Both the position numbers and the translations under genes were made by a program. From assembly GCF_003334255.1 (NCBI RefSeq), contig NZ_QOWU01000073.1: a stretch of 18,664 nucleotides of DNA, one strand, 5' to 3'. The notes under the pieces were generated by a model that was given only the letters and a program-made list of their open reading frames with translations, searched no databases and was not told the DNA's origin. Source of the DNA: Escherichia coli (lineage in GTDB: Bacteria > Pseudomonadota > Gammaproteobacteria > Enterobacterales > Enterobacteriaceae). Position 1 is the first letter of the stretch; every line of letters begins with the position of its first letter. Of this stretch, positions 986 to 1,519 are shown piece after piece.

Positions 986-1519
986 ATGAACGCAAAAATC
1001 AGATACGGCCTGTCGACTGCCATTCTGGCGCTGATTACTGCAGGCGCATCTGCGCCTGACATTCTCGACCAGTTTCTGGATGAAAAAGAAGGTAACCACA
1101 CCACAGCATACCGTGATGGTTCTGGTATATGGACCATCTGCCGGGGTGCCACGGTGGTGGATGGCAAACCTGTCGTTCCGGGCATGAAGTTGTCGAAGGA
1201 AAAATGCGACCAGGTTAACGCCATTGAGCGTGATAAAGCGCTGGCGTGGGTGGAGAAAAACATCAGAGTGCCGCTGACCGAACCCCAGAAAGCGGGGATC
1301 GCGTCATTCTGTCCGTACAACATTGGTCCCGGTAAGTGTTTCCCGTCGACGTTTTACAGACGAATTAATGCTGGTGATCGCAGGGGAGCATGTGAGGCGA
1401 TTCGCTGGTGGATTAAGGACGGTGGCAGGGACTGCCGTATTCGCTCAAATAACTGTTACGGTCAGGTATCCCGGCGAGACCAGGAGAGCGCGCTGGCGTG
1501 CTGGGGAATCGACAGATAA
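986..1519 (+). CDS. R: SAR endolysin (phage lysozyme, GH24-type muramidase)
   Basis: N-terminal Gly/Ala/Ser-rich weakly hydrophobic segment (YGLSTAILALITAGASAP) typical of signal-anchor-release domains. Catalytic spacing E-x8-D-x5-T in EGNHTTAYRDGSGIWT. Eight Cys residues. Position in the lysis cassette. Confidence 0.9.
   Translation: MNAKIRYGLSTAILALITAGASAPDILDQFLDEKEGNHTTAYRDGSGIWTICRGATVVDGKPVVPGMKLSKEKCDQVNAIERDKALAWVEKNIRVPLTEPQKAGIASFCPYNIGPGKCFPSTFYRRINAGDRRGACEAIRWWIKDGGRDCRIRSNNCYGQVSRRDQESALACWGIDR

Follow-up and report, generated by a model that had tools for sequence, protein, structure and literature searches.

Among the SAR endolysins described so far, R21 is reportedly regulated by conformation, P1 Lyz is said to be the precedent for thiol-disulfide isomerisation, and Lyz103 of phage ERA103 is said to be the precedent for disulfide caging. 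Caging of the Lyz103 type requires a pair of Cys residues around the catalytic Glu together with a thiol in the SAR domain. The general SAR endolysin scheme has been summarised previously (PMC6116005), and the features by which a SAR domain is recognised, namely a weakly hydrophobic segment that is rich in Gly, Ala, Ser and Thr and preceded by one to three basic residues, have also been given (PMC9239132). The catalytic triad is Glu35/Asp44/Thr50 in both R21 and the DLP12 enzyme (PMC8228626, Table 3) and Glu42/Cys51/Thr57 in P1 Lyz (PMC8228626). The R protein of phage 933W was listed by the Young laboratory as the 'phage 933W SAR endolysin' construct, and three foreign SAR endolysins, 933W R among them, were tested with the Mu releasin gp25, which was found to enhance the release of SAR endolysins (PMC9239132).

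We examined a window of 18,664 nucleotides, which is the whole stretch of DNA that was analysed (Escherichia coli assembly GCF_003334255.1, contig NZ_QOWU01000073.1), and focused on the open reading frame at positions 986..1519 of the plus strand. This frame was found to be real, with the ATG at 986 being the earliest possible start past the upstream stop, and it encodes a protein of 177 aa that was identified from Pfam, PHROG and PDB matches and from its identity to 933W R as a T4-type lysozyme of family GH24 that carries a SAR domain at its N-terminus. The Pfam family PF00959 (Phage_lysozyme) matched residues 33-167 over positions 2-125 of the 125 in the model (E 1.8e-24), and the endolysin family phrog_7 matched at 2.7e-62; the search of NCBIfam with R gave a sub-threshold match alone (BgtA, scoring 70 bits where the cut-off is 315). 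The motif of the catalytic triad, E35-x8-D44-x5-T50, could be read from the sequence at 1088..1135 (plus strand), and across 100 homologues E35 and D44 were invariant while T50 was conserved in at least 90%. 933W R, also of 177 aa, is identical to R at 164/177 residues (92.7%) and has the same eight Cys, SAR segment and triad, and the R protein of phage H-19B is identical at 168/177 residues with all eight Cys kept. We regard it as likely that the frame at 986-1519 is the R endolysin of the lysis cassette of a lambdoid (Stx-phage or Qin-type) prophage, with an R21-type SAR domain and eight structural Cys arranged as four disulfides. The R gene as such is an ordinary, very common and already known member of the well-studied class of SAR endolysins whose SAR domain contains no Cys.

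The distribution of this region was then assessed. A megablast search with the region returned 455 phage records, mostly from Stx-converting and other lambdoid phages, in which R was annotated as 'lysozyme R', 'R protein' or 'phage endolysin'. Of the 5426 complete E. coli genomes, 4163 had a match to positions 1-1600 of the window, and the median number of matching places was two per genome. The label rrrQ ('rrrQ: lysozyme') had been given to some RefSeq copies of the lysozyme gene. In E. coli, few prophage genes are as common as R. The version of the region described here, when required over at least 80% of positions 1-1600, was encountered in 101 genomes only.

The genes around R are those of a lysis cassette. 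The window opens with the 3' end of the holin gene S at 1..117 (plus strand; class II, S21/933W type; phrog_9876 at 1.2e-27, and phrog_20), which is partial at the window edge and 92% identical to the end of the 933W S gene; RefSeq copies of S are annotated as 'class II holin family protein'. From its family membership, S would have the character of a pinholin. Downstream of R, the gene of the i-spanin Rz was located at 2162..2656 (plus strand) by its PHROG match (phrog_13 at 1.9e-77, and phrog_3198 at 2e-30 for Rz/Rz1), with the gene of the o-spanin Rz1, also recognised by a PHROG match, embedded in it at 2382-2567. R sits in a cassette with a holin, Rz and Rz1, as SAR endolysins do, for which the holin is often of class II or a pinholin. 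A terminator scan further noted a strong hairpin resembling an intrinsic terminator, in which 15 pairs precede a T run, just 3' of R (1610..1642, plus strand).

This locus differs from that of phage 933W at the start of R. In a blastn comparison with 933W, positions 1-125 and 995-1614 of the window aligned to contiguous 933W sequence, and positions 126..994, a segment of 869 bp located between codons 2 and 4 of R, were without a counterpart; this comparison gives the presence or absence of the segment and is compatible with a loss in 933W as well as with a gain here. The left part matches 933W through the R ATG plus one base, and the right part matches from R codon 4 on. In 933W, S and R lie 4 nt apart, and the sequence GGGGAGAG at the end of S (duplex dG -8.5) forms the SD before the R ATG. 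The same SD is present in the window within the end of S (107-114, plus strand, duplex dG -8.5), and here the former SD and ATG of R start another gene, at 122. R itself starts at a new ATG (986) that comes from the segment's right end and has no SD. The first residues of R are accordingly MNAKI here and MSRKL in 933W, with two N-terminal basic residues in the former and three in the latter. Compared to both 933W R and RrrQ (YdfQ) of the Qin prophage, R differs in its first five residues, and it is set off from the holin by 869 bp and has lost its SD.

The segment was found to hold two genes. The first, at 122..652 on the plus strand, encodes a YdfR/DUF1327-like protein of 176 aa (phrog_2091 at 2.9e-80, phrog_406 at 1.1e-61), the relatives of which are annotated as 'YdfR family protein' or 'DUF1327'. 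The second is antisense, at 585..860 on the minus strand, and encodes a DUF1823-like protein of 91 aa (phrog_18136 at 4.2e-52); its counterpart in PhiR5_1 is annotated as 'DUF1823 containing protein', and the terminator scan placed a terminator-like hairpin 3' of it at 562-535 on the minus strand.

The initial annotation had described the R start as lacking an obvious SD and had suggested that this may reflect an upstream insertion. The 25 nt 5' of the R ATG were found to have no complementarity to the anti-SD, with a duplex dG of +0.3 kcal/mol compared to a median of -4.0 for random 25-mers from the window and values of -5.8 to -10.3 for its other genes. We attribute the absence of an SD to the two-gene segment of 869 bp at codons 2-4, whose first gene now uses the SD and ATG that were originally those of R. 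Both parts of the suggestion are borne out by these data, in that the start has no SD and that 126-994 is extra relative to 933W with the old SD serving the gene at 122. The RNA fold of positions 926-1045 was unremarkable (z = -0.23), neither a special structure nor a hidden SD was seen where R starts, and a consensus scan of 860-985 recorded no sigma-70 promoter for R or for the antisense gene. The 20 nt directly 5' of the R ATG, ATAAATCCTGATAAATATCC, are identical in the phages H-19B, PhiR5_1 and vB_EcoS-783R2. This shared leader indicates that the SD-less start of R is an established and evidently functional variant rather than the result of damage.

We sought to characterize the N-terminus of R with respect to the features given for SAR domains in PMC9239132. 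Based on hydropathy, composition and the structural model, residues 7-24 (YGLSTAILALITAGASAP), encoded at 1004..1057 on the plus strand, were assigned as the SAR domain. The best mean Kyte-Doolittle value over 18 aa was 1.41 in this segment, compared to 3.16 for the transmembrane helix of Rz, which is encoded in the same window. Gly, Ala, Ser and Thr make up 10/18 of its residues, and K4 and R6 lie upstream, so that residues 7-24 agree with the published features. The triad numbers are the same in R21, DLP12 and R, which gives the same spacing between the SAR domain and the catalytic Glu in all of them.

An N-terminus of this layout, in which an n-region is followed by an h-region and by small residues, could also be taken for a cleavable Sec signal peptide, in which case R would be secreted in soluble form into the periplasm, as Lys44 of phage fOg44 is, and would be controlled otherwise. 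It was noted that two AXA-like motifs, A19-G20-A21/S22 and A21-S22-A23/P24, resemble signal-peptidase sites. However, the second of these sites has Pro at +1, and in 783R2 (AGAPAP) Pro occupies +1 of both. The segment is conserved in the consensus of the homologues, and E35 follows just 11 residues past it, as in R21. In the AlphaFold2 model discussed below, the segment belongs to the globular fold at a pLDDT of 96-98 and overlays the SAR helices of full-length R21, and 933W R has been listed as a SAR endolysin and also employed as one (PMC9239132). We consider cleavage of the N-terminus very unlikely and retain the assignment of residues 7-24 as a SAR domain.

The AlphaFold2 model of R, built from an alignment of 100 sequences, had a mean pLDDT of 92.4. 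Residues 11-30 were modelled at a pLDDT of 96-98 and as helical (H11-18, H23-35), with the SAR segment placed within the globule. Foldseek assigned the T4-lysozyme fold, with a probability of 1.00 for the model against the R21, RrrD, P22 and T4 lysozymes. The closest full-length solved relatives of R were R21 (3HDE, 3HDF) and DLP12 RrrD (4ZPU), at approximately 1e-16. Against the full-length structures of R21 and RrrD together, TMq was 0.75-0.77 over 169-181 columns, and against full-length R21 considered by itself it was 0.75 over 169-170 columns, compared to a TMq of 0.55 against the SAR-truncated inactive R21 (3HDF). R21 and RrrD share with R the GH24 fold, a Cys-free SAR domain, the numbering of the triad and Cys residues equivalent to 52, 74, 136 and 171. 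However, they are only 26-29% identical to R in the Foldseek alignments, R21 has no counterpart of the C109-C118 pair of R or of its seven-residue C150-C157 loop, and the SAR sequences are unrelated, with that of R21 being Gly-rich and that of R being rich in Ala, Ser and Thr.

P1 Lyz (1XJT) also resembles R in being a SAR endolysin with the T4-lysozyme fold (Foldseek E 3.3e-05). Two of its Cys presumably correspond to C136/C171 as well. P1 Lyz differs in its SAR Cys and catalytic Cys and in its use of disulfide isomerisation, whereas R has no SAR Cys and carries D44 at the catalytic position. Lyz103 of ERA103, which we take to be a SAR lysozyme with the same E-D-T triad as R, differs in its caging thiols, since both the Glu-flanking Cys pair and the SAR thiol are absent from R. 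Residues 1-51 of R are without Cys and the residue at position 44 is an Asp, not a Cys, so that the two features of the P1 Lyz type, a SAR Cys and a catalytic Cys, are both missing. With regard to the Lyz103 type, the Cys nearest to E35 is C52, and none is located N-terminal to E35. Covalent control of R in the manner of P1 Lyz or Lyz103 was thereby rejected, given that no SAR Cys, catalytic Cys or E35-flanking Cys is present.

We then analyzed the Cys residues of R, which lie at positions 52, 74, 109, 118, 136, 150, 157 and 172. Their content is high, at 4.5% of the protein compared to 0.9% in the 14 other proteins of the window, and the binomial probability of at least eight Cys in 177 aa is 0.0011 at p = 0.0115. 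Homologues were collected by a word-indexed search and by an exhaustive search of representatives at 50% identity, and the full-length ones were aligned. All eight Cys were kept down to approximately 50% identity, and below this level they were lost solely in pairs. The co-occurrence of Cys was assessed in a set of 48 homologues that was non-redundant at 70% identity. The number of Cys past position 25 was even in 45/48 of these, and 45/48 had no Cys before position 25. As a separate observation, P0267 is a homologue with a Cys in its SAR-like segment.

From this examination, four pairs were apparent (Fisher test; counts are given for both members, only the first, only the second and neither). 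Cys52 and Cys74 (1139-1141 and 1205-1207, plus strand), the predicted disulfide 1, co-occurred as 47/0/0/1 (p = 0.021), and this pair is common to R21 and RrrD. In four further homologues and in the solved cytoplasmic enzymes 7M5I and 9KBS, C52 and C74 are replaced by Gly and Ala, as would be expected in Cys-free relatives if the two positions are in close contact. Cys109 and Cys118 (1310-1312 and 1337-1339, plus strand), the predicted disulfide 2, are specific to some clades and co-occurred as 17/0/0/31 (p = 2.4e-13). Cys136 and Cys172 (1391-1393 and 1499-1501, plus strand), the predicted disulfide 3, are again common to R21 and RrrD, where the C-terminal Cys is located one residue earlier; for position 136 with 171/172 the counts were 41/0/2/5 (p = 1.2e-05), and the two exceptions, P0241 and P0257, have substitute Cys elsewhere. 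Cys150 and Cys157 (1433-1435 and 1454-1456, plus strand), the predicted disulfide 4, co-occurred as 44/0/0/4 (p = 5.1e-06). These two Cys form a C-x6-C loop and close a seven-residue insertion relative to R21 (CRIRSNNC), located in a beta-hairpin of the C-terminal lobe. Associations between Cys of different pairs were marginal at most among the 48 homologues, with the lowest p being 0.049.

A neighbour-joining tree was calculated with the Cys columns removed, and it is to be read as a rough one given that the sequences are short and divergent. On this tree, positions 109 and 118 underwent at least nine state changes each, always jointly. Position 136 changed at least five times and the C-terminal Cys (171/172) at least three times, mostly jointly; positions 150 and 157 changed twice each, jointly; and positions 52 and 74 changed once in the set of 48 sequences. 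Because joint changes recurred on the tree, the co-occurrence of the Cys is not the outcome of one inherited event. It was also noted that the last Cys of the 933W/RrrQ clade is shifted one residue later, to 172, compared to 171 in R21 and RrrD.

Drawn from this co-variation, the map suggests that the eight Cys most likely form four structural periplasmic disulfides, C52-C74, C109-C118, C136-C172 and C150-C157. The 52-74 and 136-172 disulfides would be common to R21 and RrrD, and the 109-118 and 150-157 disulfides appear to be add-ons that are found in some clades only. The initial annotation had proposed a SAR helix free of Cys, the absence of P1 Lyz-type control through a SAR Cys, eight Cys in the catalytic domain and periplasmic disulfide formation. 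The first three agree with what we found, in that residues 1-51 have no Cys, that D44 stands in place of the Cys with R21 and RrrD as the best full-length solved matches, and that the eight Cys fall between 52 and 172. The fourth is strongly backed by the strict pairwise co-occurrence and the even counts, from which periplasmic disulfides are the expected outcome.

The Cys of R could alternatively serve in regulation rather than in structure. Covalent control resembling that of P1 Lyz or ERA103 Lyz103 might still operate through alternative pairings of the eight Cys in the mature domain or through host Dsb isomerases, for which P1 Lyz and Lyz103 are reported to offer precedents. C52 lies two residues past the catalytic T50, and some homologues, P0267 for example, carry a Cys in their SAR-like segment. 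However, residues 1-51 of R hold no Cys, D44 takes the place of a catalytic Cys, and no Cys pair surrounds E35. With an even number of Cys that co-vary strictly in pairs, there is no free thiol from which an isomerisation could begin, and R21, which is reportedly regulated by conformation, has the C52-C74 and C136-C171 pairs too. No feature of R speaks for alternative pairings among the Cys of the mature domain. We consider covalent control of this kind improbable to a high degree. Because no free thiol is left, thiol-driven regulation of R appears unlikely, and with four structural disulfides and no free regulatory thiol the activation of R is probably of the R21 type, that is, conformational, and not of the P1 Lyz or Lyz103 type.

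The eight Cys within 126 residues could in principle also make Cys4 sites, in which case they would bind a metal such as Zn, or they might remain reduced. Such sites are at odds with the gain and loss of the Cys as independent pairs rather than in fours, and the Gly/Ala or hydrophobic residues that replace the Cys in Cys-free relatives suggest buried contact pairs. The domain would moreover be exported to the oxidising periplasm, and to our knowledge GH24 lysozymes are not metalloenzymes. Metal-bound or reduced Cys are thus considered extremely unlikely, and four structural disulfides remain our preferred reading of the eight Cys.

Cytoplasmic GH24 endolysins, including T4 E, P22 gp19, LysF1 (7M5I) and AcLys (6ET6), share the catalytic fold and the triad with R. 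However, they have no SAR segment and few or no Cys, and Gly or Ala occupy the positions of C52 and C74 of R. We also considered a general rule by which Cys-rich GH24 enzymes are the exported ones; it fits most of the homologues and was not adopted as such, given that in P0250 and P0262 the N-terminus includes a hydrophobic segment and the domain has no Cys.

Following the general scheme for SAR endolysins, we infer that R would be activated as follows. Sec would export the catalytic domain, and the weakly hydrophobic SAR helix would tether the enzyme, in an inactive state, in the energised inner membrane. Depolarisation of the membrane by the class II holin that is encoded upstream would allow the SAR helix to leave the bilayer, and the freed helix would refold onto the catalytic domain beside E35 without any thiol chemistry. 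Active R would then degrade the murein, and Rz/Rz1 would complete lysis.

It could further be proposed that the four disulfides do more than stabilise the domain passively, and that they make folding in this clade strictly dependent on DsbA/DsbB and so couple the timing of lysis to the periplasm's redox state, with the add-on pairs C109-C118 and C150-C157 tuning the dependence. We regard this proposal as doubtful. If it is true, Dsb dependence would also couple the release of phage and Shiga toxin to the redox state for the near-identical alleles of Stx phages. A literature search on endolysin, DsbA and SAR returned no paper, and the disulfide map from co-variation was not found stated in the literature examined. 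The map may guide the design of constructs from this scaffold, which is widely used and would need periplasmic or oxidising expression, and the Cys pattern offers a simple sequence cue for telling exported from cytoplasmic GH24 endolysins.

With regard to the organisation of lambdoid lysis genes, this locus illustrates clearly how a moron-type segment can sit within the opening codons of a lysis gene. The segment takes the SD and the start of this gene for itself, and the endolysin gene, left with no SD, remains functional in viable phages, H-19B among them.

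At the start of R, the SAR (signal-anchor-release) endolysin gene (986-1519, plus strand), an 869-bp moron-like segment was noted at 126-994, positioned between R codons 2 and 4. The segment carries a YdfR/DUF1327-like gene (122-652, plus strand), which has the Shine-Dalgarno sequence and ATG that were formerly those of R, and an antisense DUF1823-like gene (585-860, minus strand) with its own terminator-like hairpin at 562-535 on the same strand. Directly 3' of R, within the expected late operon, we found a strong intrinsic-terminator-like hairpin on the plus strand (1610-1642), which has a 15-pair stem and a T run after it.

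The interval separating R from the i-spanin gene Rz (1714-2160) was found to hold four tiny hydrophobic ORFs at 1714-1809, 1812-1943, 1946-2062 and 2074-2160, whereas phage 933W has an 'ant' gene at this position. The starts and stops of these ORFs are closely packed, and this tight spacing suggests that they are translationally coupled. All four match PHROGs of unknown function (6632, 4906 and 1115/3246/4493), and the ORFs at 1946-2062 and 2074-2160 look paralogous.

A predicted lipoprotein of 113 aa containing the motif LVMGC is encoded at 3207-3548 (plus strand), and a TonB C-terminal domain was detected in it (TIGR01352; 54 bits vs a cut-off of 27). The PHROGs database labels its family, phrog_1267, as 'Rz-like spanin', which looks like a mislabel.

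An HNH endonuclease gene (3922-4287, plus strand; phrog_589, 1.6e-44) lies a short way upstream of the genes for both terminase subunits, small and large, as is usual in cos phages, where HNH and terminase genes are associated. The gene order that follows is unusual, with a 645-aa fusion of head maturation protease and major capsid protein (6864-8801, plus strand; phrog_617 and phrog_80) flanked by the large terminase and portal. The 859-position phrog_2271 'portal protein' profile is divided between two overlapping ORFs at 9013-11435, the first (9013-10377) covering profile positions 1-451 and the second (10374-11435) positions 562-859. Inside the second ORF, 2.7 tandem copies of a 162-bp unit (10538-10969) code for a repeated 54-aa unit.

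Outside the window, P0267, a distant relative from the homologue set collected for R, was observed to have one Cys in its SAR-like segment and six in its mature domain. P0267 could represent a member of the R endolysin's family that is regulated through a thiol.
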